A program made the translations under genes and the position numbers. From contig JAGBJT010000060.1 in NCBI GenBank assembly GCA_017934275.1, forward strand, positions 1-31,498: a DNA stretch of 31,498 nucleotides. Direction: 5' to 3'. This document shows positions 15,961 through 31,311 of this stretch, piece after piece; positions within the stretch are counted from its first letter, which is position 1, and every line of letters begins with the position of its first letter. The DNA comes from Cardiobacteriaceae bacterium (GTDB lineage: Bacteria > Pseudomonadota > Gammaproteobacteria > Cardiobacteriales > Cardiobacteriaceae). The notes below the pieces were generated by a model. That model saw only the letters and a list, made by a program, of their open reading frames with translations, was not told where the DNA came from and made no database searches.

Positions 15961-16764
15961 ATGGACAAAAAATTATTAGAAGAACAAAATCCAGAACTTG
16001 CAGCAGACCGCGAAAATGAATTGCAAGATACGGAAATGTCTTTCGTTGAACATTTAATTGAACTTCGTAGCCGTTTGATAAAAATTTTAGTATCCGTAGG
16101 TGTAATTTTTTTAGCTCTTTTACCTTTTTATCAGAAGATTTACGAGATATTTGCTTACCCTGTTCTTACTAATTTATTACCTGGTCAGCAAATGCTCGCC
16201 CATCAACCTATCGATGTTTTTTTAACCCCTATTAAGGTTTCTTTATTCATCTCTGTGCTTATTGCAATGCCGATAATTTTGCGGCAAATTTGGCTTTTTA
16301 TAGCACCTGCAATGTATAAAAAAGAAAAGAAATTGATGCTTCCGTTAGTGGTTTCATCAACTTTTCTTTTTTATCTCGGAGTTTTATTCGCCTATTTTGT
16401 CATTTTGCCCTTACTCTTTGCCTTTTTATCCAAAATCGGGGCGAATATGAATGGTGTTGCTTTAATGCCTGATATTACCGCTTATTTAGGCTTGTCATTG
16501 AAGCTCTTTTTGGCTTTCGGAATAGTGTTTGAAGTGCCGATTGCAACCGTAATTTTGATTCAAAGTGGCATAGTCAAAATCTCCACTCTTACGGCAAAAA
16601 GACCATATATCATTTTGGCAGCTTTCACTATCGGAATGTTGCTCACCCCTCCTGATGTTTTTTCGCAAACTTTACTTGCCGTTCCTATGCTTTTGTTATT
16701 TGAACTGGGAATTTTGGTCGCGAAATTTTTGGAAAAAAAACGGGCTGATAACCGCTCGAATTAA
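15961..16764 (+). CDS. tatC: Sec-independent translocase TatC
   Basis: …HLIELRSRLIK…, six-TM TatC topology, LTPPDVFSQTLLAVPMLLLFELG near-identical to the E. coli TatC C-terminus. Start ambiguous: M1 at 15961 or the MSFVEH Met at 16036. Confidence 0.85.
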   Translation: MDKKLLEEQNPELAADRENELQDTEMSFVEHLIELRSRLIKILVSVGVIFLALLPFYQKIYEIFAYPVLTNLLPGQQMLAHQPIDVFLTPIKVSLFISVLIAMPIILRQIWLFIAPAMYKKEKKLMLPLVVSSTFLFYLGVLFAYFVILPLLFAFLSKIGANMNGVALMPDITAYLGLSLKLFLAFGIVFEVPIATVILIQSGIVKISTLTAKRPYIILAAFTIGMLLTPPDVFSQTLLAVPMLLLFELGILVAKFLEKKRADNRSN

Positions 16765-16855
16765 AAATACAGCAATCCATATAACTGCGGCGAAGAAAAA
16801 TCAAACAATAAATCGCCTATATAATTCCAAAAGAATATTTAACTGTGAGAACAAA

Positions 16856-18403
16856 ATGCAAGATTTATTAAACAATCTCCCGAATTTAGCAAGCGGCACT
16901 ATCGGTATCGAAAGAGAGACTTTACGCACAAACTCTGATGCATATTTATCGCAAACATTACACCCTGAAAGTCTCGGTAATGTTTATACCCATAAAAATA
17001 TCACGATTGATTATGCAGAAAGCCTTTTAGAACTTGTAACCGATACTCATAATAATCCTGAACAGTTATATTTACAGCTACTCAATCTGCATAAATTTAC
17101 TGCACAAAATATAAACGACGAATTACTTTGGCCGACAAGTATGCCCTGCATCTTGCCTGATAACCCCGAGTTAATAGAATTTGGCTATTTTGGTAAAAGT
17201 AACGGCGGCAAAATTAAGCGTCTATACCGTAGCGGACTGGCTTACCGTTACGGCAGACCGATGCAAATGATTGCGGGAATTCACTTTAATTATTCGCCTA
17301 GTGAGGAATTTTGGAATTATTTAAGTCAATACAAAGAAAAAAACTTAAATCAGGATTTCAAAAACGAAATTTATATGGCTGCGCTACGCAATATCGGTCG
17401 CACAAGTTGGCTTATTTGCTATTTATTCGGCGCATCTCCTGCTTGCGATTTTTCCTTCCAACCAGCGCAACAATTATTAACTCGACATCATAAAAGAAGT
17501 CTAATTTGGAACAATGCCTGCACTTTAAGAATGAGTCAATTAGGTTATCAAAATAAAGCTGATTTCAGCGTCGATTTTAATAACCTCGAAGCATATATTA
17601 AAGACCTAATTTATGCGGTTTTAACCCCTTCTCCAATTTATGAATATATTGGAATTCAAGCACCAGACGGTAATTATCGGCAAATTAGCACCAATATTTT
17701 GCAAATTGAAAATGAATATTACGCTTCCGCGCGTCCCAAACAAATTCCTAACAAAAATGAAGCACCAACCCTTGCATTGGCACGGCGTGGAATTTTGTAT
17801 CTAGAACTGCGTCTTCCCGATTGTAATCCGTATAGTCCAACGGGAATTAGTTTGGAGCAAATTTATTTTCTTGAAACATATATGCTTTATTGTTTAATGA
17901 AAAATTCGCCAGAAATCAGACATTGCGAACAAGATGAAATTAACCGCAATAGGCTACGCACCGCTTGTTGTGGCTTATCAAAAGATTTGAAATTATCTTA
18001 TCGTTGCAAAGAAAAAAGTATGAAATCTTGGGCTTTGGAAATATTAGAAGATATGCTAAAAATTGCTGCAATACTGGATAAAAATACAGATAAACAGCAA
18101 TATCAAAATTCCGTAAGAGAGCAAATAAAAGCAGTTGATAGTGGCGAAGTTTTAGCCGCAAAAGTCCGTAATGATTTGGCAAATAAAGATTTTATAAATT
18201 TTGCGCAAGAATTGCAAAATAAACATCTAACGGTATTAAAATCCCCGCTTGACAGTAAAATAAAACAGGAATTAGATAATTTGCGAGATAAATCATTAGA
18301 AGATTTTGCAAAAATTGAAAAAGCCGCCGAAACTCAAATTCAATTTAGTGAATATTTAGAGCATTATTTTGATGAATTAAAAACATTTGCCAGAGAAAAT
18401 TAA
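16856..18403 (+). CDS. gshA: Glutamate--cysteine ligase (E. coli-type GshA)
   Basis: 515 aa collinear with E. coli GshA (GIERETLR…, LWPTSMPC…, GRFKRLYRSGL…RYG, MQMIAGIHFNYS). The start is the internal Met at 16856. The listed ORF start at 16655 overlaps tatC and is spurious. Confidence 0.85.
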   Translation: MQDLLNNLPNLASGTIGIERETLRTNSDAYLSQTLHPESLGNVYTHKNITIDYAESLLELVTDTHNNPEQLYLQLLNLHKFTAQNINDELLWPTSMPCILPDNPELIEFGYFGKSNGGKIKRLYRSGLAYRYGRPMQMIAGIHFNYSPSEEFWNYLSQYKEKNLNQDFKNEIYMAALRNIGRTSWLICYLFGASPACDFSFQPAQQLLTRHHKRSLIWNNACTLRMSQLGYQNKADFSVDFNNLEAYIKDLIYAVLTPSPIYEYIGIQAPDGNYRQISTNILQIENEYYASARPKQIPNKNEAPTLALARRGILYLELRLPDCNPYSPTGISLEQIYFLETYMLYCLMKNSPEIRHCEQDEINRNRLRTACCGLSKDLKLSYRCKEKSMKSWALEILEDMLKIAAILDKNTDKQQYQNSVREQIKAVDSGEVLAAKVRNDLANKDFINFAQELQNKHLTVLKSPLDSKIKQELDNLRDKSLEDFAKIEKAAETQIQFSEYLEHYFDELKTFAREN

Positions 18404-18417
18404 ATAAAGAGAACAAT

Positions 18418-20592
18418 ATGCGCACAATATATTTTTTAAGAGGTCTTCCTGCTTCTGGAAAAAGCTTTTGGGTTAAAGAAAATAATCTCACTCCTTACAC
18501 TATTAGTTCCGATGAAATACGCTTGATGTATGCCGCGCCAGTTATAGATAATGACGGTAATTACACTATTTCGCAAAAATATAACAAAAAAGTTTGGAAA
18601 CAATTATTCAGTCTTTTAGAAGAAAAAATGGGGCGCGGAGAGTTTATCATCGTCGATGCAACTCATTATCGTGATAGTGCTTTGAGGGAATATAAAAAGC
18701 TGATAAATCATTACCGTTATCGCGCTTTTATTGTTGATTTTACTGATGTTGCATTAGAAACAATTTTAGAACGAAATCAACAACGGGAAAGTTATAAAAT
18801 AGTGCCTGAAAAAACCATTTATAAAATGCACAATGTTTTACGGCAAAATAATAATGAAATATATCCGAAATTAAGTCCAAAAGATGCGCTAGAACAACTA
18901 AATAAATCTCTTATTTTCGATTTTAATCATTACGAAAAGGTTATAATTTTTGGGGATATTCACGGTTGTTTTACTCCTCTTAATCATTATTTTCAAGAAA
19001 ATCCATTCTCGGAAAATAATGCTTATATTTTTCTCGGTGATTATGTCGATCGCGGAATAGAACATCATAAAACATTCGAGCTTTTGCTATCTATTTATCA
19101 CTTAAAAAATGTATTAGTTTTAGAAGGTAATCACGAAAGATGGCTGCGCTTTTATGCCGAAGATGATGAGGCGAGCTTTGCCCGAATTAAATCCAAAACT
19201 TTTTTGGAAAAAACCGCGCCAGAACTTGAAAATCTAGATAAAAAGGATTTACGGCAATTTTGCCGCACGCTCGGTCAAATGGCTTATTTTTCATTTGCAG
19301 GAAAAGAATATTTCGCCTCACACGGTGGAGTTGGCTGTTTGCCGCATTTATTTATAAACACCCAGCAATATATAAACGGGGTTGGCAGCTATGAAGATAC
19401 CGAAAGTTTATATGACGCTTGGGAGAAAAATACCGCCGACAATTGCGTTTTAATTCACGGACATCGTAATACCGAAAATCTCCCCGCAAAAGTCCGAAGC
19501 CGTTGTTATAACTTATGCAGTGAAATTGAATACGGAGATAGTTTAAGAGTGCTAGAAATTTCACGCAAGAGGGAAGAAATTAAGCAATATCCAAATCCTA
19601 TTTATGACAAAAATTTACCGAAAAAGCCGCGAGTAATAAAGAATAATGCCATTTTAAGCGACAATGAATTACTTAATCAGCTTAATTTAAGCCCGTTAAT
19701 CATTAAAAAATCTTTTGATAACGGTATTATTTCTTACAATTTTTCCCGTGATGCCTTTTATAAAAAAGAATGGAATAACTTAACTTGCCGTGCAAGAGGG
19801 GTATTTATTTTTAATGACAGGGTAGTTTGTAGAAGTTATAACAAATTTTTCAATTGGTATGAAAGAAAAGAAACTAGTGATGAGGAATTAGAGAAAAATT
19901 TGCGTTTTCCCGTCCGTGCATACAGAAAGGAAAATGGCTTTCTAGCAATGGTTTCCGTCTTTAATAATGATTTTTTAGTGTGCAGCAAATCGACTATTTC
20001 TGGCACTTTTGTCGGATATATCAATAATGCCTTGGACAGATTATCAGAAGATACTAGAAAAGCTATTTTTAACCATTGCCAGAAAAATAATGTAACATTT
20101 GTTTTTGAATGCGTTGATATTAAAAACGACCCCCATATTGTGCAATATCAAAATAATCATTTATATTTATTAGACATCGTGCAAAATGATTTTGAATTTA
20201 AGAAAATTCCCTATGAAGAGTTAATAAAAATAGCCAAAGAATGTAATTTAGAACACAAGGAATTGGAAAAAGAGTTTAAGTCTTGGAACGAACTAAACAG
20301 CTATAAAAATAAACTAGAAGAGAGCTTAAATTTACAAAATAGAGGGTGGAGTGAAGGATTTGTTTTAGAAGATAAAAACGGCTTTATGCTTAAATATAAA
20401 AATCCCAATTACCGCCTATGGAAGCAATTGCGTTCAGTGCTAGAAAGATTGCAAATGGATAAACAAATAACGGTGAATAATTTTTCACAACAGGCACAAG
20501 AGGTAATCAAACTAATGCAGAACTTAAAAGCGGAAAATAAATTAAACCGCTTAAAAATTACCGACATTCAAAATATATATTGGAATTCATAA
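18418..20592 (+). CDS. Tri-domain polynucleotide kinase / lambda-type phosphatase / ligase-like nucleotidyltransferase (bacterial Pnkp-like RNA end-healing and sealing enzyme), 724 aa
   Basis: Residues 1-~160 are a P-loop 5'-OH polynucleotide kinase: GLPASGKSFW (compare T4 Pnk GCPGSGKSTW), Asp in SSDEIR, RNQQR lid (RxxxR). Residues ~175-370 are a binuclear metallophosphatase of the lambda-phosphatase/PPP type: GDIHGC, GDYVDRG, GNHE, HGG, GH motifs. Residues ~400-724 are a covalent-nucleotidyltransferase (RNA/DNA ligase superfamily)-like domain: motif I-like KENG (K504), motif IV EGFVLE (646-651), motif V LKYK (658-661). Markedly more AT-rich than the flanking genes. No hen1 adjacent. Confidence 0.6.
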   Translation: MRTIYFLRGLPASGKSFWVKENNLTPYTISSDEIRLMYAAPVIDNDGNYTISQKYNKKVWKQLFSLLEEKMGRGEFIIVDATHYRDSALREYKKLINHYRYRAFIVDFTDVALETILERNQQRESYKIVPEKTIYKMHNVLRQNNNEIYPKLSPKDALEQLNKSLIFDFNHYEKVIIFGDIHGCFTPLNHYFQENPFSENNAYIFLGDYVDRGIEHHKTFELLLSIYHLKNVLVLEGNHERWLRFYAEDDEASFARIKSKTFLEKTAPELENLDKKDLRQFCRTLGQMAYFSFAGKEYFASHGGVGCLPHLFINTQQYINGVGSYEDTESLYDAWEKNTADNCVLIHGHRNTENLPAKVRSRCYNLCSEIEYGDSLRVLEISRKREEIKQYPNPIYDKNLPKKPRVIKNNAILSDNELLNQLNLSPLIIKKSFDNGIISYNFSRDAFYKKEWNNLTCRARGVFIFNDRVVCRSYNKFFNWYERKETSDEELEKNLRFPVRAYRKENGFLAMVSVFNNDFLVCSKSTISGTFVGYINNALDRLSEDTRKAIFNHCQKNNVTFVFECVDIKNDPHIVQYQNNHLYLLDIVQNDFEFKKIPYEELIKIAKECNLEHKELEKEFKSWNELNSYKNKLEESLNLQNRGWSEGFVLEDKNGFMLKYKNPNYRLWKQLRSVLERLQMDKQITVNNFSQQAQEVIKLMQNLKAENKLNRLKITDIQNIYWNS

Positions 20593-20595
20593 TTA

Positions 20596-20632
20596 AAGCA
20601 TCAAAAACGGCGTTAAATTCGCCGTTTTTATT
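20596..20632. terminator. Bidirectional rho-independent terminator between the pnkp-like gene and ubiA
   Basis: AAACGGCG-TTAAATT-CGCCGTTT hairpin with T tracts on both strands. Confidence 0.7.
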
Positions 20633-21523: not shown

Positions 21524-22312
21524 TTATTTTTTCATTTCCAAAAAATCTTTAATCGATTTCATAGGTGCATTTTCAGCAGGCATTAAAACACGGTTGTAGC
21601 TTGGCGCACGCCCTACTCTTTCGGAAAAAAACTTATGAACTTGCAGATATTGATATGACATTAAAACGATACAAGGTAGTGAAATCGTAAGTGCAAGGAT
21701 ATTGATTTTTTTCGTATCTAGATAATGAATTAAAAACGCACGGTAGAAAATAATTAACACAAGAGCGGAAATAAATAAAGTAGCCATTTCCGTCCATAAA
21801 AAGCCCGTATAAAAGGCAAAATAATCACCAGCTAATTCAACTAGCGATGAAATTAAGGAAAAAAATGCCGTTATTCCCAACCAAGCCATAAGAGGTGGTT
21901 TTTTATTGCTAGTTTTATTCACAACAACCAAACTATTTGCAATCCAAACTAAACCAAAAATAATCAGCAAGCAGAAAAATAGCAATTTGTAATTCGGTAA
22001 ATATTGTTGAGCGGAACTCAAATAATCGTTATACATCGGATCTAATAAATACAAAATAAACCAAACCATTGCCATAAACGGTGAAGTAACCAAAAGCCAA
22101 AATACGCTTCTTTTTTTCTGGTTTGATGCAAAAGCTGATTTATTCATTTCAGTTGTTAATTGCAAGTTTTCCGCTAATTTATCCGAACGCTCTTGTTTTG
22201 TTTTTACCGCTTCTTTTTTCGCTTCCAGTTGATTTAATTTATTATTCAGATTTAAGTTGCTATTTAATTCCTTATTCGTTTTCTTTACCGTAGTATTTTT
22301 TCTTCTAGCCAT
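21524..22312 (-). CDS. Hypothetical polytopic membrane protein with a Lys-rich, coiled-coil-like cytoplasmic N-terminus (262 aa)
   Basis: ORF 16 bp upstream of ubiA on the same strand. ~70-aa charged N-terminal region (KK…NLNLNNKLNQLEAKKEAVKTKQERSDKL) followed by ~5-6 hydrophobic helices. No recognisable family. Confidence 0.45.
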   Translation of the reverse strand: MARRKNTTVKKTNKELNSNLNLNNKLNQLEAKKEAVKTKQERSDKLAENLQLTTEMNKSAFASNQKKRSVFWLLVTSPFMAMVWFILYLLDPMYNDYLSSAQQYLPNYKLLFFCLLIIFGLVWIANSLVVVNKTSNKKPPLMAWLGITAFFSLISSLVELAGDYFAFYTGFLWTEMATLFISALVLIIFYRAFLIHYLDTKKINILALTISLPCIVLMSYQYLQVHKFFSERVGRAPSYNRVLMPAENAPMKSIKDFLEMKK

Positions 22313-22348
22313 ATTTATTCCTCACAGTTTCTAATTAAAGTGCTATTT

Positions 22349-23821
22349 TTAATTGCGTTTAACTTGTTCTAATATTTTAGAAATTACCTTTTTACCCTTT
22401 TCAGTTTGTATTCCGTAAAGCTCAATTTGGATAACAAACCCCTCTTTTTTATGCGCAACAGATGCAGCTAAAAAGCGATGGTCGTCAATTGTTTCACCAT
22501 TAGAGGTAAATTTTCCAGGCTGACGGCAATAAACGGTTTTGAATGCTTCTCCTGCAATTTCAGTAAATCCTTCCTTGCATTTGTAGTTATCGTAATCGCG
22601 GCGTGGTCTTGCACTGTAGCCCATTTTGAATGCTTTGTTATACACACCGTAAAAATGCGCAGTAGTTATATCCTCCAAGGGATAAACATAGGCATAACTG
22701 TATCCAATTTGTCCGACAGATGTCTCATTATTGATAAAAGTCTGACGGTCATTAAAACAACGGACTTCGGCAACGGCAATCAAATCTTCCGCATCAGGAT
22801 TAGAAGAAGCGTCCCAACATTTGGTATCTTTGCTCATCGCAAGCGGCACGGTGTATTTGGCAATTTTGGTCGTTTGCCAATTTTTAGCGGCAAGCGGTTC
22901 TTTGAAATATTTATCATTGTCGGCAGAAAGCTGCTCGGCGATGCGTTTATTAACTTCATCTTGCTGAATTTTTTTATCACTAGCAAGTAATTTTTCAAGA
23001 TGTTCAACAGGAACAACAAAACTAATATTGCTTCCCGCCCGCAAATATGCAACATTCACACCGATAACTTTTCCGCGGTTATTCAAAGTCGGCCCTCCTG
23101 ACATACCGCTATTTAAGGAGCCAGAAAAAAGAATATGCGCCTGTGCCGATTTGCGCAAAAGACCGTTGTTTATCCCGTCGATAATCACAAAACCCAAATC
23201 GTGCGGATTACCGAGCGCAAACAAACTCTCTCCCTGCACCGATTTTTCTTCGAATTCAAATGGGGCACTTATTTTTTTATCCGCCTGCAAAATCGCCAAA
23301 TCATTGACGATATCAAAATCGAGCAAGGTCAAATTGCCCTGTTCATCATTTTGGTCGATATAACTTGCACGGTGTTTTTTCTTTTGTAATACATCTGACA
23401 CCACATGGTAATTTGTCGCGATTTTGTCGCCATTTGCAATCACAAATCCCGAACCGATAGCTGTTTTCTGCCCTGTTTCTTCGTTGTTAATTTGAATTTG
23501 CACCACCGAATTGCGGTAACGGGCAAAAAGTTCTTCGGCATTAAATTTCGCCGCTTCTTTCTTGGGAAATGGAAGTTTTTTTCCTGATTTAGCAAGCTGT
23601 TCTTGGATTTTATCGAGGGCTAAATCCTCTGTTTTTTCCGTATTTTTCGCCGTAACTTTTAAGTTGATTGCATCATTTTTTTCAATCGCCACGGATTGCA
23701 TATTGGAAACTTTTTCCGCCCGAACTTCATCAGCTTGAATTTCAGCATTTTCTAGCTCTTGCGTTGATGCAGTAGAAATAAAAAATATAAAAATCGTAAA
23801 AAAACAAATTATTTTTTTCAT
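22349..23821 (-). CDS. Secreted trypsin-like (S1 family) serine protease with an uncharacterised ~160-aa C-terminal domain (490 aa)
   Basis: Signal peptide MKKIICFFTIFIFFISTAS. Catalytic triad context TNYHVV (His), DLAILQ (Asp), GMSGGP (Ser). No PDZ detected. AT-rich. Confidence 0.65.
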   Translation of the reverse strand: MKKIICFFTIFIFFISTASTQELENAEIQADEVRAEKVSNMQSVAIEKNDAINLKVTAKNTEKTEDLALDKIQEQLAKSGKKLPFPKKEAAKFNAEELFARYRNSVVQIQINNEETGQKTAIGSGFVIANGDKIATNYHVVSDVLQKKKHRASYIDQNDEQGNLTLLDFDIVNDLAILQADKKISAPFEFEEKSVQGESLFALGNPHDLGFVIIDGINNGLLRKSAQAHILFSGSLNSGMSGGPTLNNRGKVIGVNVAYLRAGSNISFVVPVEHLEKLLASDKKIQQDEVNKRIAEQLSADNDKYFKEPLAAKNWQTTKIAKYTVPLAMSKDTKCWDASSNPDAEDLIAVAEVRCFNDRQTFINNETSVGQIGYSYAYVYPLEDITTAHFYGVYNKAFKMGYSARPRRDYDNYKCKEGFTEIAGEAFKTVYCRQPGKFTSNGETIDDHRFLAASVAHKKEGFVIQIELYGIQTEKGKKVISKILEQVKRN

Positions 23822-23910
23822 ATAAGCATCTCTTTATATTAAAAAAATTAAGACAAAGCAAACAGTATAGCCAAATATAGCGACACGAACTATCAGGCGG
23901 ACAAACTAAA

Positions 23911-23958
23911 AAAATAAAGCGGAGCTGAAAATCAATCTCCGCTTTATTTTTTTTATAT
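23911..23958. terminator. Bidirectional rho-independent terminator between the PepSY gene and the protease gene
   Basis: AAGCGGAG-N12-CTCCGCTT hairpin followed by TATTTTTTTT on plus, and T-rich on minus as well. Confidence 0.65.
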
Positions 23959-23977
23959 AAACACAACTGTTTTAAGA

Positions 23978-24478
23978 TTATTTTTCCTCTGGCTTATCTA
24001 ATTTTTTACCATCTTCGGCAGAAAAAATCAGGTTTTGTTCCTGACCATCTTTTTCTACCGTTACTGAATAGAAAGGTTTTACTGCTTTTGCAGGCGCATC
24101 TTTTTGTCTATCACCACCCATTCCACGACCTCCTCTTCCCATTCCGCCCATTTGCGCCATATAGGATATTGCAACTACTTTACCTTCTTTTTCAGCTTGG
24201 GCAATTGCATCTTTAATAGAAAATTTCGGCGCAGAAAATGGCTCTGGCTTTGGTTCTGGCATTTTTTCACCAGTTTCAGCATCAAGCAATATCATCTTGC
24301 GCTCGCCGTCATCACTAATTACCATCACACGGTAAGCATCTTTGCCGTCTTGCTTCATCAGGCGAACAAAAGTTACATTTCCCTCGCTTTGTGCTTTGTC
24401 TACCGCTTCGGATAGACTGATGGCTTGTGCTTGTGTTACAAATAATAAGCTTGTGATAATTAAGGATATTTTTTTCAT
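23978..24478 (-). CDS. Secreted PepSY-domain protein (two PepSY repeats)
   Basis: Signal peptide MKKISLIITSLLFVTQAQA. Two ~60-aa units ending in the D-A-x-T-G-type motif (ISLSEAVDKAQSE…LLDAETGEKM; FSIKDAIAQAEKEG…FSAEDGKKL). Gly/Arg/Met-rich linker. Confidence 0.65.
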   Translation of the reverse strand: MKKISLIITSLLFVTQAQAISLSEAVDKAQSEGNVTFVRLMKQDGKDAYRVMVISDDGERKMILLDAETGEKMPEPKPEPFSAPKFSIKDAIAQAEKEGKVVAISYMAQMGGMGRGGRGMGGDRQKDAPAKAVKPFYSVTVEKDGQEQNLIFSAEDGKKLDKPEEK

Positions 24479-24562
24479 AAAGATTTGTTCTCATTAAAAA
24501 CCGCGAAATTACGGCGGACTAATTTTAGCGCATAAATGATAAATATTCTTAATTCCGTATTG

Positions 24563-25342
24563 CTAAAAACTCCGTCCGCCACCGCCGTGTGTATTTCCAC
24601 TCGATGAACTATGCGTGGAACTTCCGCCGCTTCCACCACCAGAACTAGAAGATGGCAATTCTCTATAAAACACTTTGCGGTCAATAACTTCATCATCGAA
24701 AGGCATAAAGTTGTGATTTGCGGTATTTTTCCAAATAGGCGGAATATTGCGTTGTTTTAATTTATAACTCTTTTTATTTCTAAAATAAGCCAAAATCATA
24801 GCTATTAAACCTGCCAAACCGCCCCCTGCTGCATCTTCTGGACTTATAGAATTACCTGAAATATAAAATTCAAGTTTTTTTACATAAGCATTCAGTGCAT
24901 CATCATATGAAGCGTTTTTTCTATACTCTTCTACAAATTTGTCAAGTAAATCACTAATTTTTATATCAGTTAAAGTTGCAATTGTATTAGTCCCCGATGT
25001 AGAAGTATGCACTTTACGCTCCCCAGTCATATCGGCAAGTGCAATTAAAATCAGGCTACCTTCAACATTTTGCCCCTGTTTGTAGTTGAGTAGTTCATCA
25101 AGATAATCATCGGCGGCATCTTTGGCTGTTTTATTAGTTGCATTTACCGTATAAATAACCGAATAGGAACCTGTTTTTTCTGAAATTTTTTCCAGTTTTG
25201 CGGACAATTTTATTTTTGTATCGGTTGATAAAAGTCCAGCATTATCAAAAACATATTCTCGACAAAAAGAATTTGCGGTAAAAATAAAAAATATTCCTAC
25301 TATTGCAGTTATTTTTTTGCACCATTTAATCCAATTTACCAT
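24563..25342 (-). CDS. TPM-domain (TLP18.3/Psb32/MOLO-1; YgcG/YdjH-like) membrane protein with a Gly/Ser-rich C-terminal tail
   Basis: N-terminal signal-anchor. YVFDNAGLLS…LILIALADMTGERKVHTSTSG matches the TPM phosphatase-domain pattern. A TM helix (GGLAGLIAMILAYF) follows, then the SSSSGGGSGGSS…GGGGRSF tail. Start taken at the third Met (GGAGG RBS 9 nt upstream); 25348 and 25360 are also possible. Confidence 0.65.
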   Translation of the reverse strand: MVNWIKWCKKITAIVGIFFIFTANSFCREYVFDNAGLLSTDTKIKLSAKLEKISEKTGSYSVIYTVNATNKTAKDAADDYLDELLNYKQGQNVEGSLILIALADMTGERKVHTSTSGTNTIATLTDIKISDLLDKFVEEYRKNASYDDALNAYVKKLEFYISGNSISPEDAAGGGLAGLIAMILAYFRNKKSYKLKQRNIPPIWKNTANHNFMPFDDEVIDRKVFYRELPSSSSGGGSGGSSTHSSSSGNTHGGGGRSF

Positions 25343-26394
25343 AACCATTGTCCTCCGCATAATGCTAAAATCAAGACAATTATTCCAAATACTGCTGAAT
25401 AAGCAAAAGCTTTTTTCTGTGATAGCGGTAATTCGCCATTTGCAAGTCCAGTTTGACCGTTAATCGCAAATTGATAAGTTTTTCCCTGATAGTTGTAATT
25501 CAAAATATACGTCGGAAGTAATACATATCTCGTATCAGTAATTGCAAATTTTGAATTATCAATTTCATCGGTAAATCTTTGGCAATTTGCCGATTTCTTG
25601 ATTTCGTTGATTGTAAAGATTGCCGCCTCTTTTAGTGCTTGTTTTTCCGCCTCTTCTTTATCTAAATTATGCCTCTCCGATTGAAATCCAGCAATATATG
25701 CACTCTTAAATTCAACCTGTTCGCTATCTTCAAACGGGTTTATAGAATTGATTAAATTACGGTCAATCTTGTCAAAAGATAAACTACGAATATTATTAAA
25801 TTGAGATTTTCCTTGCCGTTTTATCGCTAATTTCAGCACTTCTACTTCTTCTTGATTATTCAGTCTTCTGCGGTTTTCACGAATACCTGTTGCTTGAAAA
25901 TCTACTTTTGCCTCAACATCGCAATCCCAATACGGTAAATACATTCCGATAATTTTATCCTGTTGCTTCTTTACCGTAAAATCATTAGGCAATAATTTTT
26001 TACCTCTTATCCATTTTTCAAAACACTCCATCGCCTGTTTTTGCGTAATTTTGAATGGAATAATTCGATGCGGTAAAAAGCCCCCCTTTAAGCGATTTTC
26101 AATAATTACAGGACTATGGCAGTAGTAACAAAATAAAGCCGTGGTTGTATCACCACAAACTACTTCCGCACCGCAATTCGGACAATTATATTGCCGTATT
26201 TCAGAACCATCATCTATTCTATCGTCGGAATATTTACTTTTTTCTTCAATTTGCTCTTCATGTTTGGCAATAAAGGCTTCCAACTCTTCTTCGGTAGATG
26301 AGCGACCGCAATATTCACACTTAAATCCCTGAATTTGCGGGTTATAAGAAAGCGGCGCACTACAACCAGGACATTTGTAATTATCTACTGCCAT
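25336..26394 (-). CDS. Double zinc-ribbon protein with a C-terminal TM helix (YdjG-like), 352 aa
   Basis: N-terminal CPGCSAPL…CEYCG and NCPNCGAEV…CYYCH zinc-ribbon pairs. Central uncharacterised domain. C-terminal hydrophobic helix AFAYSAVFGIIVLILALCGG. Stop abuts the TPM gene start. Confidence 0.55.
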   Translation of the reverse strand: MAVDNYKCPGCSAPLSYNPQIQGFKCEYCGRSSTEEELEAFIAKHEEQIEEKSKYSDDRIDDGSEIRQYNCPNCGAEVVCGDTTTALFCYYCHSPVIIENRLKGGFLPHRIIPFKITQKQAMECFEKWIRGKKLLPNDFTVKKQQDKIIGMYLPYWDCDVEAKVDFQATGIRENRRRLNNQEEVEVLKLAIKRQGKSQFNNIRSLSFDKIDRNLINSINPFEDSEQVEFKSAYIAGFQSERHNLDKEEAEKQALKEAAIFTINEIKKSANCQRFTDEIDNSKFAITDTRYVLLPTYILNYNYQGKTYQFAINGQTGLANGELPLSQKKAFAYSAVFGIIVLILALCGGQWLW

Positions 26395-26397
26395 TTT

Positions 26398-26640
26398 TCA
26401 TTCCTCGATTTGAAGATTTTGAATATATTCATTCGGTTCTCCTTGCCAAGATTGACAAGAAATTTCAACGGGATTAAAGCTGTTGTCGAACTTAATATCT
26501 TCCCAAGTTGATATATTTTTTAATTCCATTGGCAATATTTTTTCCACAATAATTGAGGCATATTCTTTTGCGTTGCCGTTTTCATCTAATTCTGCACTCA
26601 AACCTCTACTCACCGTATATGAAAAGCGATTATTTATCAT
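26398..26640 (-). CDS. Hypothetical small acidic protein (80 aa)
   Basis: ORF 3 nt upstream of the ZnR gene, with a 4-nt overlap with the preceding 88-aa ORF (operon-like coupling). No motifs. Confidence 0.4.
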   Translation of the reverse strand: MINNRFSYTVSRGLSAELDENGNAKEYASIIVEKILPMELKNISTWEDIKFDNSFNPVEISCQSWQGEPNEYIQNLQIEE

Positions 26641-26903
26641 TCGGACGGAATTATAAGGCTTGCCATGCTTTGTTTTTCCACCTGTGCAATATCCTGATAA
26701 AAAGCAAGTTCAGGCGGTTTATTTTCATATCCAAAACTATATTCAAGCTGATTTTCAACCTGCCTTAAAGTTAAAACTTTGTTGTTTGTAGTTTTACAAG
26801 TAAATACATCTTTAATGTAATAAGCTTTAGCTTCACTGTTTGCATTATTTATCAACAGCATTTGCAGTAAAATTGCAAATAAAACGGCAACATTTTTTCT
26901 CAT
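26637..26903 (-). CDS. Hypothetical small secreted protein (88 aa) with a signal peptide
   Basis: MRKNVAVLFAILLQMLLINNANSEA signal peptide. AAGGTG RBS. Translationally coupled to the 80-aa ORF. Confidence 0.45.
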   Translation of the reverse strand: MRKNVAVLFAILLQMLLINNANSEAKAYYIKDVFTCKTTNNKVLTLRQVENQLEYSFGYENKPPELAFYQDIAQVEKQSMASLIIPSE

Positions 26904-26914
26904 CTCTTCACCTT

Positions 26915-26950
26915 AAAAAAATAACCTGTTCCATCTCTAAAACAGGTTAT
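26915..26950 (-). terminator. Rho-independent terminator or attenuator immediately after the SPFH gene
   Basis: Perfect 10-bp stem ATAACCTGTT/AACAGGTTAT with a 10-nt loop. Followed, on the minus-strand transcript, by UUUUUU. The SPFH stop codon is at 26967-26969. Confidence 0.7.
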
Positions 26951-26966
26951 TTCGCTAAAAAAACAA

Positions 26967-28256
26967 TTACACCGCTTGACCGCAATTACCGCAAAATTTT
27001 GCCCCCTGTGGCAATTTTTCATTGCAATTTGTGCAAGTTTTTTCCGCCTCAACCTTTGTGCCGCATTCACCGCAAAATTTGGCGTTTGCTGCAAGCTCTG
27101 CTCCGCAATTTGCACATTTTGCTGCCTGCGGTTTTTGGCTACCACAAGATGAACAGAATTTACCCGTTACCGTTGCACCGCAAGTACACAACCATTGATT
27201 TTGAGCGTTTTGATTTTGTGCTGCTGGCATCGCGGACTGTGCTTGTTGCTGCTGCATTTGCGCCATATTGACTTGCGAAGCATTCTGCATAAATCCGCCT
27301 GCTGCCTGCATTCCCAAGCCCATTCCCATAAACGCGCCCATTGGACCGCCACCGCCTTCGTTTGAACCAGCATTTTCGAAACCGCGCGCAATTGAAGTTT
27401 GCACATATGTTTCGCGCAAATTCGGATCGGAAAGCATTGCCGCTTTGTTTCTTTCGTTGATGAGATTTTTGCTTTCTTCGTCGTAGGAAATACTAGAAAT
27501 ACCGACCGCTTGCACTTCAAAACCGCGCATTTTTTTCCAATCATCATCCAAAGTGTCCTGCATAAATTTGGACAATTCCCGACCTTTGCTCGGCAAAAAC
27601 GAAATTCTTATTCCTTCCGCTGACATTTGATTTACAACTGCTTGCAGAGCTTCTAAAAATTCGTTCAAATATTGCTGATTGATGTCGTCGATATGGACTT
27701 TTGCGGTATTTCTAGGAATTGCTTCTTGGAAGAATAAAATCGGATCGGTAACCTTGATTGAATAAGTTCCGAATGTTCTTAAAAATAATTCTGAGTTATA
27801 AAATAAGTCAAAATATTGCAGAGGATTTGGCGTTCCGAATTTAATTCCTTTTATTTCCTGCAAATTGATGTAATAGACTTCTTGCTTACCTGACGGTGTG
27901 CCCGAAAACTTAAATCTATTCCAAGCATCCTTTAATGAGTCCTTAAATTGACCATTAAATATACTCGGTGCGGAATTATTAGAGACCTTGAAATATCCAG
28001 GTTCAGCTGAATAATCCACAATTTTTCCACCATCAACCAGCATCATAAATTGGTTCTGATTAACATAAATAATCGAACCGTCGGTGATTAAATCGGAAGA
28101 ACCTTTGCGGTTGGTGTTGCGTTTTTCACCGCGGCGCACCTGCTCACCCTTGCACATCACAACGCCTTCTTGCATTTCGGTCGCTTCGATAACATCAAGC
28201 CATTGATCGGCAAGAGTTCCACCTATTGCACCTGCAGCAGCTGAAAGTAAGCCCAT
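26967..28256 (-). CDS. SPFH/band-7 (flotillin-like; 'virion core protein'-type, YdjI-like) protein with a Q/N/M/G-rich linker and three C-terminal zinc ribbons (429 aa)
   Basis: N-terminal MGLLSAAAGAIGGTLADQWLDV…, typical of this SPFH subfamily. Low-complexity region GGGGPMGAFMGMGLGMQAAGG…QMQQQQAQ. Three CxxC-N~10-CxxC units (CTCG…CSSCG; CANCG…CGECG; CTNCN…CGNCG). Start at the internal Met with an AGGAG RBS. Confidence 0.65.
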   Translation of the reverse strand: MGLLSAAAGAIGGTLADQWLDVIEATEMQEGVVMCKGEQVRRGEKRNTNRKGSSDLITDGSIIYVNQNQFMMLVDGGKIVDYSAEPGYFKVSNNSAPSIFNGQFKDSLKDAWNRFKFSGTPSGKQEVYYINLQEIKGIKFGTPNPLQYFDLFYNSELFLRTFGTYSIKVTDPILFFQEAIPRNTAKVHIDDINQQYLNEFLEALQAVVNQMSAEGIRISFLPSKGRELSKFMQDTLDDDWKKMRGFEVQAVGISSISYDEESKNLINERNKAAMLSDPNLRETYVQTSIARGFENAGSNEGGGGPMGAFMGMGLGMQAAGGFMQNASQVNMAQMQQQQAQSAMPAAQNQNAQNQWLCTCGATVTGKFCSSCGSQKPQAAKCANCGAELAANAKFCGECGTKVEAEKTCTNCNEKLPQGAKFCGNCGQAV

Positions 28257-28302
28257 AAATATCTCCTTAAAATATAAACCAACAGAACTAATTAGATACA
28301 AA

Positions 28303-30015: not shown

Positions 30016-31311
30016 ATGAAACGCTTGATTTTTCAACAACTTCTGGATTGGAAAAACAACCCAAATCGCAAACCTTTAATCATTCAAGGAGCACGGCAAG
30101 TCGGTAAAACTTGGCTGATGAAAGAATTCGGCAGGCAACATTATCAAAAGACAGCTTATATTAGTTTTACCGATAGCCCAGAAGCGGCGCAGATTTTCGA
30201 CGGAAATTATGATTTAGACCGTATTTTGTTGCACTTAAAAATTTTCAGCAATACGGAAATTCAAGCCGATGACACTTTGATTGTTTTGGATGAAATTCAA
30301 GAATGCGAAAGAGCCTTGAATTCTCTGAAATTTTTTAATGAAAATGCCAAAAATTATCACATCATCGCGGCTGGCAGTTTGTTGGGAGTTGCGGTTAGAA
30401 AAAAACAATACTCTTTTCCTGTTGGACAAGTGGATTTTTTGAATTTATATCCCCTAAATTTCAAGGAATTTTTAACTGCTATCGGTGAAGAAAAATTATC
30501 CCATTTGTTGCTACATAAAGATTGGCAAAGTATAAAAATATTCCATCAAAAATATATCAATTTATTAAAACAATATATGTTTATTGGCGGTATGCCCGAA
30601 GCGGTGCAATCCTTTGTGGATTTTCAAGATTTCAATAAAGTCCGAAGCATACAAAATAATATCTTGATTGGATACAGAGAAGATTTTTCTAAATACACGG
30701 AAGCAAAAAATATTCCAAAAATAATGGCAGTTTGGAATTCATTACCTGCGCAATTGTCCAAAGAAAATAAAAAATTTACTTATCAACAAATTCAAAAAGG
30801 GGCAAGAGCAAGAGAATATGAAAACGCAATAGAGTGGTTAGTTTTAACGGGACTAGTGCATAAAATAAATCGGATTAGCAAACCAAATTTACCCTTATTG
30901 TCCTATCAAGATAATAATTTCAAGTTATATTTATTGGATACGGGATTGTTATCGGCATTGTCAATGCTCGATGCTCAAACAATTATCAACGGCGATAAAA
31001 TTTTTTCGGAATTCAAAGGAGCTTTAACCGAGCAATTTGTTTTGCAAGAATTAAAAAATAATCCATATATGCCAATTACTTATTGGGCGGCAGAAAACGC
31101 AATGGCAGAAGTTGATTTTGTCATTCAATATAAGCAACAAGTTATTCCAATAGAAGTTAAATCAGCACTTAATTTAAGAGCCAAGAGCCTTGCTTCTTAC
31201 CGCAGTAAATATCAGCCAGAGATTGCAATTCGCAGTTCGCTTGCCAACTTTGAAATCAACCAAGATTTGCACAATATTCCTTTATACGCTATCGGCGATA
31301 TTTGCAATTAA
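30016..31311 (+). CDS. AAA-family ATPase, DUF4143 (AAA_14) type (431 aa)
   Basis: Walker A GARQVGKTW, Walker B LIVLDEIQ, and a C-terminal DUF4143-like region typical of this widespread accessory ATPase family. AT-rich relative to lpdA. Confidence 0.7.
   Translation: MKRLIFQQLLDWKNNPNRKPLIIQGARQVGKTWLMKEFGRQHYQKTAYISFTDSPEAAQIFDGNYDLDRILLHLKIFSNTEIQADDTLIVLDEIQECERALNSLKFFNENAKNYHIIAAGSLLGVAVRKKQYSFPVGQVDFLNLYPLNFKEFLTAIGEEKLSHLLLHKDWQSIKIFHQKYINLLKQYMFIGGMPEAVQSFVDFQDFNKVRSIQNNILIGYREDFSKYTEAKNIPKIMAVWNSLPAQLSKENKKFTYQQIQKGARAREYENAIEWLVLTGLVHKINRISKPNLPLLSYQDNNFKLYLLDTGLLSALSMLDAQTIINGDKIFSEFKGALTEQFVLQELKNNPYMPITYWAAENAMAEVDFVIQYKQQVIPIEVKSALNLRAKSLASYRSKYQPEIAIRSSLANFEINQDLHNIPLYAIGDICN

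Follow-up and report, generated by a model that had tools for sequence, protein, structure and literature searches.

A solitary kinase–phosphatase–ligase gene of a Cardiobacteriaceae chromosome, predicted to encode a self-contained RNA repair enzyme with a Trl1-like ligase domain

The 31,498-nucleotide stretch of Cardiobacteriaceae DNA analysed here (the 31.5 kb window) carries on its forward strand a complete and uninterrupted ORF of 724 codons plus stop (positions 18418–20592), the product of which has the domain order of bacterial Pnkp. The gene stands alone, and the question raised by this locus is whether it encodes an orphaned Pnkp that has been separated from Hen1 or an enzyme of another kind. 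The preliminary description had placed it as a solo gene between gshA and a terminator followed by ubiA, and its immediate surroundings are indeed of this form. The ORF starts 14 bp past gshA, the stop codon of which occupies positions 18401–18403, and a purine-rich Shine–Dalgarno-like element (AAGAGA, 18407–18412, forward strand) lies 5 nt upstream of the ATG. A hairpin terminator with a 10-bp stem (20603–20629, assigned to neither strand) separates the ORF from the convergent ubiA gene and is potentially bidirectional, because an A-run and a T-run flank the stem. Nothing resembling a terminator lies between gshA and the ORF and, as the gshA stop codon falls just before AAGAGA and the ATG, the two are likely to be co-transcribed. 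Across the whole window we found no hen1, methyltransferase, ribotoxin or RNA-damaging toxin gene, nor any tRNA gene or Rfam element, so that the lack of a Hen1 partner noted at the outset holds for all 31.5 kb. The ORF matched no known defence system in PADLOC; no phage structural genes lie near it, and the setting is that of a bacterial chromosome with housekeeping neighbours.

The protein was divided into domains by Pfam matches and an AF2 model (mean pLDDT 90.1), all features being encoded on the forward strand. The predicted 5'-OH polynucleotide kinase domain (residues 1–165, positions 18418–18912; AAA_33 P-loop kinase match at residues 6–141, 5e-18) contains the P-loop G9-x4-G14-K15-S16, D32, R35 and the lid R119-x3-R123, and is followed by a binuclear metallophosphoesterase domain (residues 166–400, 18913–19617; Metallophos match at residues 174–353, 5e-17) with the motifs GDIH182G, GD208YVD211R212G, GN238H239E, H302GG and H347GH349. 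A flexible linker (residues 401–424, 19618–19689), which is variable and gapped in the alignment and modelled with pLDDT < 50 at residues 406–412, leads to an Rnl1/Trl1-type adenylyltransferase domain (residues 425–662, 19690–20403), matched over the full model length by RNA_lig_T4_1, a covalent nucleotidyltransferase ligase family (residues 459–665, 7e-39). The chain ends in a short domain (residues 663–724, 20404–20589) modelled as three helices (663–679, 691–705 and 714–723). Within the ligase, R460 and K476-F477 belong to the N-subdomain, and motifs I (K504-E-N-G), III (E564), IV (E646-G-F-V) and V (K659-x-K661) are all present. Lys504 (codon 19927–19929), in the KxNG of motif I, is the predicted site of AMP attachment; it had been proposed as the motif I lysine, and it aligns with the corresponding residue of both Trl1-LIG and T4 Rnl1. 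Conservation among 121 family members was complete for kinase residues K15, D32, R35 and R123, for phosphatase residues D180/H182, D208/D211/R212, N238/H239, H302 and H347/H349, and for ligase residues R460, K476-F477, K504, E564, E646, K659 and K661. The kinase–phosphatase–ligase order and the motifs listed in the preliminary description are thus confirmed.

The resemblance to Pnkp is closest in the healing half of the protein, since the best structural matches of the kinase and the metallophosphatase were the modules of Clostridium thermocellum Pnkp. Together with the shared domain order, this is what might be expected of a canonical bacterial Pnkp that had lost or relocated Hen1 and shortened its Pnkp-type ligase. 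We consider such a history very improbable, however, as TIGR04075, the NCBIfam equivalog for bacterial Pnkp, scored only 51 bits, far below its cutoff of 750. It aligned over model positions 13–304 of 851, which took in the kinase and a portion of the phosphatase and left the ligase part of the model unmatched, whereas a true Pnkp control scored 1102 bits. The ligase matched PF09511 as well as Trl1 and Rnl1 structures, with no Rnl4 structure among the top 50–60 fold matches. Both the NCBIfam score and the fold of the ligase thus rule out canonical Pnkp membership; the ligase is of the Rnl1/Trl1 type and not of the Hen1-dependent Rnl4 type. The term 'Pnkp-type' fits the kinase and phosphatase but not the ligase; the ligase part is also shorter than in canonical Pnkp, as had been stated for the C. 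thermocellum enzyme, because it represents a different ligase clade and not a reduced Pnkp ligase.

The same conclusion is reached from gene neighbourhoods. In canonical Pnkp loci Hen1 (TIGR04074, 718 bits) was found upstream in 23 of 39, whereas by the same method, with every ORF of 80 aa or more clustered, none of 41 family loci had a shared neighbour gene, Hen1 included. The sole 15-locus ORF cluster in this search was an antisense ORF within the family gene itself. The absence of Hen1 is therefore the normal state of a separate and widespread family, and not an anomaly of this locus. This family has already been catalogued. The whole protein aligned with phrog_8238 ('RNA ligase', approx. 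740 aa) at E 4.6e-187, residues 1–713 matching profile positions 1–718 of 737, and on this profile match the gene belongs to the PHROG 8238 family, which is widespread in bacteria and phages. Homologues that span the full length are found in 112 phage records and in many bacteria, with no Hen1 or other conserved partner; the family comprises about 500 clusters at 50% identity, is mainly phage-carried and scattered in bacteria, and is frequent among Staphylococcus, Bacillus, Lactobacillus, Pseudomonas and other phages. Besides the fusion there are stand-alone versions of about 310 aa. The family is apparently uncharacterised, as the full-text literature searched contained no biochemical characterisation of the fusion and no enzymatic activity of any family member. 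Nor did that literature mention prokaryotic Rnl6 members, although the architecture may already be included in comparative-genomics surveys.

The adenylyltransferase part is built as in Rnl6: it is Rnl1-like and has the N-terminal subdomain together with motifs I, III, IV and V. The defining feature of the Rnl6 clade is an all-helical Trl1-type C-terminal domain (PMC6379707), and the window protein has one. When its C-terminal tail alone was compared by hhalign with 30 fungal Trl1 C-domains, the match had a probability of 89.7%, an E value of 1.8e-6 and a score of 34.1, against a mean of 9.7 and a maximum of 16.4 for shuffled controls; this profile comparison supersedes a tail-only HMM comparison with just two Trl1 C-domains, which gave a marginal 4–8 bits. 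The tail matched the T4 Rnl1 C-domain with P = 0.12 and a probability of 0.5%, and profile alignments to T4 Rnl1 ended at T4 residue 254–255, leaving the T4 tRNA-specificity domain (255–374) unmatched. As judged from these profiles, the three-helix tail is homologous to the Trl1-LIG C-domain. Membership of the Rnl1 clade was excluded by the absence of the T4-type tRNA-specificity domain, and identity with eukaryotic Trl1 (LIG-KIN-CPD) by the kinase–metallophosphatase–ligase order and the absence of a 2H/CPD domain. The Rnl6 clade, so far defined on fungal enzymes, would on this evidence extend to prokaryotes and phages.

We think it probable that the product of the gene is a self-contained RNA heal-and-seal enzyme that joins Pnkp-type healing to Trl1-LIG/Rnl6-type sealing. 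All catalytic residues are intact and there is no Hen1, and the locus is best read, as had been suggested, as specifying self-sufficient RNA repair. The domains, motifs, fold, family membership, partner absence and selection are observed; what follows on substrates, sequence of steps, 2'-OH outcome and biological role is inferred. The N-terminal P-loop kinase would phosphorylate the 5'-OH end. The central metallophosphoesterase would open the cyclic phosphate and most likely strip the phosphate fully, leaving 3'-OH/2'-OH, because all three CthPnkp monoesterase residues are kept; His182 (codon 18961–18963; His in 121/121) is the equivalent of CthPnkp His189, the switch residue that determines whether the product carries a 2'-OH or a 2'-PO4 (PMC1920235, PMC2190708). 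CthPnkp H189D has been put to a complementation test in trl1-delta yeast (PMC1920235). The C-terminal ligase would self-adenylylate at Lys504, transfer AMP onto the 5'-phosphate and seal the break. Hen1 would not be needed, and is not found, because a ligase of the Trl1-LIG/Rnl6 type brings its own C-domain. Phage copies would probably counter tRNA-cleaving immune defences, and the chromosomal copy in the window would protect the cell's own RNAs.

The end chemistry could nevertheless be different. The Trl1 2'-PO4 site is a His-Arg-Arg triad, H227, R334 and R337 in CthLIG (PMC11404444), which aligns with His573, Lys669 and Arg672 of the window protein, T4 Rnl1 having Ile167, His250 and Lys253 at these positions. 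The assignment of His573 (codon 20134–20136) to His227 was checked by alignment numbering through V303 of EGFVIR, and Lys669-Gln-Leu-Arg672 (20422–20433) corresponds to the Arg334-x-x-Arg337 binding pair, placed in a C-domain homologous to that of Trl1. Of the 121 sequences, all have the His and the Lys, and 120 have the Arg. A ligase of this kind might prefer or require 3'-OH/2'-PO4 ends, produced as a 2'-phosphate intermediate by a Pnkp-type phosphodiesterase cutting the P-O3' bond, as the CthPnkp cyclic phosphodiesterase does, and the junction 2'-PO4 would later be removed by a Tpt1/KptA-type enzyme, homologues of which are present in bacteria with partly unknown function. We regard this alternative as doubtful. 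The three monoesterase determinants are invariant, with an H182D-like natural variant in 0/121; the residue corresponding to Arg334 is Lys in every family sequence and never Arg; and a phage counter-defence enzyme leaning on host Tpt1 would not be self-sufficient. Furthermore, plant Trl1 requires 2'-PO4 without these arginines, so that the triad cannot be taken as universally diagnostic. There is nonetheless, for the preferred reading, a tension in the protein between a Trl1-like His-Lys-Arg triad, which in fungi enforces 2'-PO4, and a phosphatase predicted to remove that phosphate.

With full phosphate removal retained as the preferred outcome, the nature of the substrate must also be considered, as healing domains of the CthPnkp type act on DNA ends as well as RNA in vitro and the RNA specificity of the window enzyme is deduced from the ligase clade only. 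An enzyme acting mainly on 5'-OH/3'-phosphate DNA ends, or a non-repair function similar to the tail-fibre attachment of T4 gp63/Rnl1, would also accommodate the match of the ligase region to phrog_562 ('RNA ligase and tail fiber protein attachment catalyst', E 8.6e-27). However, the nearest ligases, Trl1 and T4 Rnl1, join RNA (tRNA) ends, the fusion of a 5'-kinase to a phosphoesterase capable of acting on 2',3'-cyclic phosphate is the signature of RNA break repair, and the gene resides on a bacterial chromosome in surroundings free of phage structural genes. Such functions seem unlikely, and far less probable than RNA repair.

The gene had also been described as clearly more AT-rich than its neighbours and as horizontally acquired in appearance. 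Composition does not bear out the former, since GC is 0.329 for the ORF against 0.350 for gshA, 0.374 for ubiA and 0.322 for the next ORF, GC3 is 0.287 against 0.275 and 0.289 for the neighbours, and the ORF differs from all window genes by z = −1.7 (GC) and −1.1 (GC3). Gene order around the ORF is kept in a sister genome, a Cardiobacteriaceae MAG, and dS is the same as for the flanking genes. Recent horizontal transfer was rejected on these grounds; the gene is a long-standing, vertically inherited resident of a Cardiobacteriaceae-like chromosome. It is under purifying selection (dN/dS = 0.13) and, as the motifs are intact, is not a pseudogene or relic. An ancient transfer from phages is plausible because the distribution of the family is patchy.

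This study corrects a tempting mis-annotation, in that what looks like an orphan Pnkp appears to be a distinct repair architecture, complete in itself, and a compact single-chain RNA heal-and-seal enzyme could serve as a reagent. The accessible literature calls the Rnl6 C-domain unique to fungal tRNA ligase; on the present reading, ligases of the Trl1 type (Rnl6) would have a large sister family among prokaryotes and phages. It is conceivable, but in our judgement improbable, that these ligases too recognise 2'-phosphate ends through the His-Lys-Arg triad. If so, bacteria and phages would form 2'-phosphate RNA junctions, the long-unexplained bacterial Tpt1/KptA enzymes would have a natural substrate, and phages or bacteria would be indicated as the source of the ligase domain used in eukaryotic tRNA splicing. 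The specificity for 2'-OH or 2'-PO4 ends thus bears both on where eukaryotic tRNA ligase came from and on what bacterial Tpt1 does.

Among known systems, C. thermocellum Pnkp has the same domain order and healing-type kinase and phosphatase, but its ligase is of the Rnl4 type and works with Hen1, whereas the window protein, which falls short of the 851 positions of the Pnkp model by about 130 residues, has a different ligase and no hen1, and would not be expected to depend on Hen1. The Pnkp1-Rnl-Hen1 complex of Capnocytophaga gingivalis (PDB 4xrp) is a heterohexamer made of three proteins and does not dispense with Hen1, while the window protein carries everything on one chain with no conserved partner. 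In overall predicted chemistry it resembles T4 Pnkp and Rnl1, which repair tRNA to counter the PrrC anticodon nuclease: both systems combine a 5' kinase, a 3' phosphatase and an ATP-dependent RNA ligase of one Pfam family, T4 Pnkp and Rnl1 are phage-borne like most of the window family, and the role expected of both is the restoration of cleaved tRNA. T4, however, splits these activities over two proteins, its phosphatase is a DxDxT acylphosphatase (PMC3592404) and not a metallophosphoesterase, and the C-terminal tRNA-specificity domain of its Rnl1 is not homologous to the window tail. The ligase and C-domain resemble those of fungal Trl1 (Rnl6; PDB 6n0t, 6n67, 8rbj, 9qw7), yet the C-domain has five helices and about 80 residues in Trl1 and three helices and about 60 residues here, Arg334 is replaced by Lys, and the ligase is N-terminal and fused to a 2H cyclic phosphodiesterase in the eukaryotic enzyme but C-terminal and fused to a metallophosphatase in the bacterial and phage family. 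The closest likeness is to PHROG 8238 members such as Staphylococcus phage SA11 gp182 and c00950 of the SPbeta-like Bacillus phage Goe11, which share the full-length architecture at 36–38% identity over 94–95% of the length; those copies reside in phage genomes, whereas the window copy is chromosomal, set among housekeeping genes and vertically inherited.

From 18418 to 20592 on the + strand runs an uninterrupted ORF for a protein of 724 aa, in which Pfam places, in the order kinase–phosphatase–ligase already proposed in the preliminary description, an AAA_33 P-loop kinase (residues 6-141, E 5e-18), a Metallophos domain (residues 174-353, E 5e-17) and RNA_lig_T4_1 (PF09511; residues 459-665, E 7e-39, full model covered). 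The motifs quoted there are all present, and in a family alignment of the protein and 120 relatives (n=121) the catalytic residues of the kinase (K15, D32, R35, R123), the phosphatase (D180, H182, D208, D211, R212, N238, H239, H302, H347, H349) and the ligase (R460, K476, K504, E564, E646, K659, K661) are each kept in 121/121 sequences; the observation made on this ORF is sound. Its assignment as a Pnkp-type enzyme did not survive comparison with TIGR04075, the NCBI curated equivalog for bacterial Pnkp. The fusion protein reached 51 bits where the cutoff is 750 bits, and its match was limited to model positions 13-304, spanning the kinase and half of the phosphatase (the first), whereas a true Pnkp scored 1102 bits, so that a canonical bacterial Pnkp is ruled out. 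The lack of Hen1 ceases to be puzzling once the protein is placed in its own family, which is distinct from Pnkp, widespread and already catalogued. In 15 of the 121 members (e.g. P0089 and P0120) the P-loop lysine is followed by Asp instead of Ser/Thr (GKD, not GKS), which is unusual for the Walker A motif of a kinase, in proteins that otherwise keep all catalytic residues; the fusion gene has Ser16 (codon at window 18463-18465).

The gene starts 14 bp past the gshA stop codon, with a purine-rich ribosome-binding element, and is followed by a terminator with a 10-bp stem (20603-20629) and by convergent ubiA. This setting, with no Hen1 alongside, had been correctly described, and the 31.5 kb window contains neither hen1 nor any methyltransferase, ribotoxin or tRNA gene or Rfam element; the rest of it is housekeeping (yidC, rnpA, dtd, fabH, plsX, yceD, hemC, ackA, pta, hisIE, tatBC, gshA, ubiA and an lpdA-like gene). 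When every ORF of 80 aa or longer was clustered across 41 family loci, no neighbour was conserved beyond lineage-specific synteny; in contrast, the same clustering of canonical Pnkp loci, run as a control, placed Hen1 (identified by TIGR04074, 718 bits) directly upstream on the same strand in 23/39.

Recent horizontal acquisition is not borne out, nor is the gene clearly more AT-rich than its neighbours, as had been claimed: its GC3 is 0.287 versus 0.275 for gshA and 0.289 for ubiA (z = -1.1 against all window genes). A related Cardiobacteriaceae metagenome-assembled genome (the sister MAG) has the same order of gshA, fusion gene and convergent ubiA, and against this syntenic orthologue dS is 0.36, like that of gshA (0.38) and ubiA (0.30), with a dN/dS of 0.13 and all four sub-regions constrained (0.06-0.25). 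A 65%-identical relative sits between a DinG-like helicase and upp. This is a long-resident functional gene and any transfer is ancient, with phage as a plausible source.

Other features of the window deserve mention. The mechanical gshA ORF, at 582 aa, shares 110 nt with the end of tatC (window 16655-16855); this long start is probably spurious, because the sister-MAG orthologue is called at 515 aa, putting the likely start at 16856. At the window edge, an AAA_14/DUF4143 ATPase gene (30016-31311, +) of low GC (0.341) lies beside higher-GC housekeeping genes (0.479 for the neighbouring lpdA-like gene); such ATPases are frequently associated with mobile or defence regions. Downstream of ubiA, a conserved cluster on the - strand (21524-28301) encodes a Pfam-less membrane-like ORF, a trypsin-like protease, a PepSY protein, a TPM_phosphatase, another Pfam-less ORF and an SPFH/Band-7 protein with double zinc ribbons. 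On a jumbo-phage-like contig (L091:4156-5446), LemA and TPM_phosphatase likewise form a pair ~2 kb away from the fusion gene carried there, which may be coincidence.

A search of 5.8 billion proteins gave >120 relatives that are full-length and carry these three Pfam domains; among the matches listed, median length was 754 aa, and the closest was 91% identical, from a Cardiobacteriaceae MAG, followed by one at 65% from a Neisseriaceae MAG. The ligase region alone matched 521 clusters at 50% identity (exhaustive HMMER search, E <= 1e-30). Family loci were recovered from Lachnospiraceae, Veillonella, Bacillus, Kurthia, Thermoactinomyces, Helicobacter and Succinivibrionaceae genomes and from a few large plasmids, distant members lying in phage-like or mobile contexts, and full-length copies occur in 112 phage records, including SPbeta-like Bacillus phages, Staphylococcus Twortvirinae and Lactobacillus, Pseudomonas, Vibrio and Fusobacterium phages. 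These copies are variously annotated as RNA ligase, tRNA ligase, ser/thr phosphatase or hypothetical protein, and PHROG 8238 'RNA ligase' matches the whole fusion protein end to end (E 4.6e-187). Among the best 150 ligase-region matches, about 20 are proteins of only ~303-330 aa (including P0246, P0248, P0261, P0264, P0265, P0268, P0270, P0277, P0278 and P0284) that appear to be free-standing forms of this Trl1-like ligase; some family members carry 250-350 extra N-terminal residues (P0056, 1077 aa; P0103, 1090 aa; P0242, 1069 aa; P0354, 1035 aa; P0332, 1001 aa). One distant fusion gene is directly followed by a Thg1-like gene (L089:9494-10282) and then by type I-C cas5d/csd1/cas7 (L089:10842-14468), which suggests an RNA-repair and defence neighbourhood, a linkage not conserved in the other family loci. 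Thg1-like proteins catalyse 3'-5' nucleotide addition in tRNA 5'-end repair.

RNA ligase clades are defined by the domain appended to a common adenylyltransferase core, and Rnl1, Rnl4 and Rnl6 have an Rnl1-like N-subdomain in common but distinct C-domains (Banerjee et al., PMC6379707). A family ligase profile (15 ligase regions, 2 from phages) aligned over positions 18-318 of 321 to residues 35-355 of the structure of the fungal Trl1 ligase domain (9qw7; E 5e-34), essentially its whole length, ending at the common IIxLRxxF motif, whereas T4 Rnl1 aligned over residues 34-255 only. The tail was also compared alone, to keep the strong core match from carrying the result. The signal against two Trl1 C-domains was marginal; with a profile built from 30 diverse fungal Trl1 C-domains, hhalign gave a probability of 89.7% (E 1.8e-6, score 34.1, 68 co-linear columns), well above the reversed control (6.5) and 100 column shuffles (mean 9.7, sd 2.4, max 16.4), and the T4 Rnl1 C-domain gave P = 0.12. 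By these profile comparisons the tail, with its 62 residues and three helices, is a shorter homologue of the five-helix Trl1 C-domain, a domain that the Trl1 papers treat as unique to fungal ligases or as conserved among them (PMC6379707; PMC11404444; bioRxiv 10.1101/2024.06.06.597711). The full-text literature searched contained no mention of prokaryotic or phage Rnl6 members and no biochemical study of the fusion, although this architecture may already be listed in the 2016 RNA-repair survey of Burroughs and Aravind; a jumbo-phage survey from the Aravind laboratory describes, in general terms only, Rnl1-family ligases that act together with kinases and occasionally calcineurin-like phosphatases.

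The interest of the family lies partly in this dearth of biochemistry and in whether 2'-OH or 2'-PO4 ends are used. In fungal Trl1, His227, Arg334 and Arg337 enforce the 2'-PO4 requirement (PMC11404444; bioRxiv 10.1101/2024.06.06.597711). By residue counting in the alignment, with numbering checked on Val303 of the EGFVIR motif, they correspond to His573 (121/121), Lys669 (121/121) and Arg672 (120/121) of the fusion protein, where T4 Rnl1 has Ile167, His250 and Lys253. Clostridium thermocellum Pnkp (CthPnkp) needs His189, Arg237 and His264 for monoesterase activity; its H189D mutant halts at the 2'-phosphate, giving ends sealed by yeast Trl1, whereas the wild-type enzyme yields 2'-OH ends sealed by T4 Rnl1 (PMC1920235; PMC2190708). 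The equivalents H182, R212 and H239 are invariant in the family, with no natural His-to-Asp variant at H182 among 121 sequences, and by analogy the fusion phosphatase should remove the phosphate completely. There is thus real tension between a wild-type Pnkp-like phosphatase and the fused ligase, which keeps a Trl1-like 2'-phosphate pocket. That pocket, and the obligatory 3'-OH/2'-PO4 intermediate formed when CthPnkp cleaves the P-O3' bond, speak for a Trl1-like route in which the ligase would use this end; we rank it lower, and favour a T4-like 2'-OH route, because the monoesterase residues are conserved, position 669 is always Lys and a phage needs self-sufficiency. By either route the enzyme's chimeric make-up joins Pnkp-type healing to Trl1/Rnl6-type sealing.
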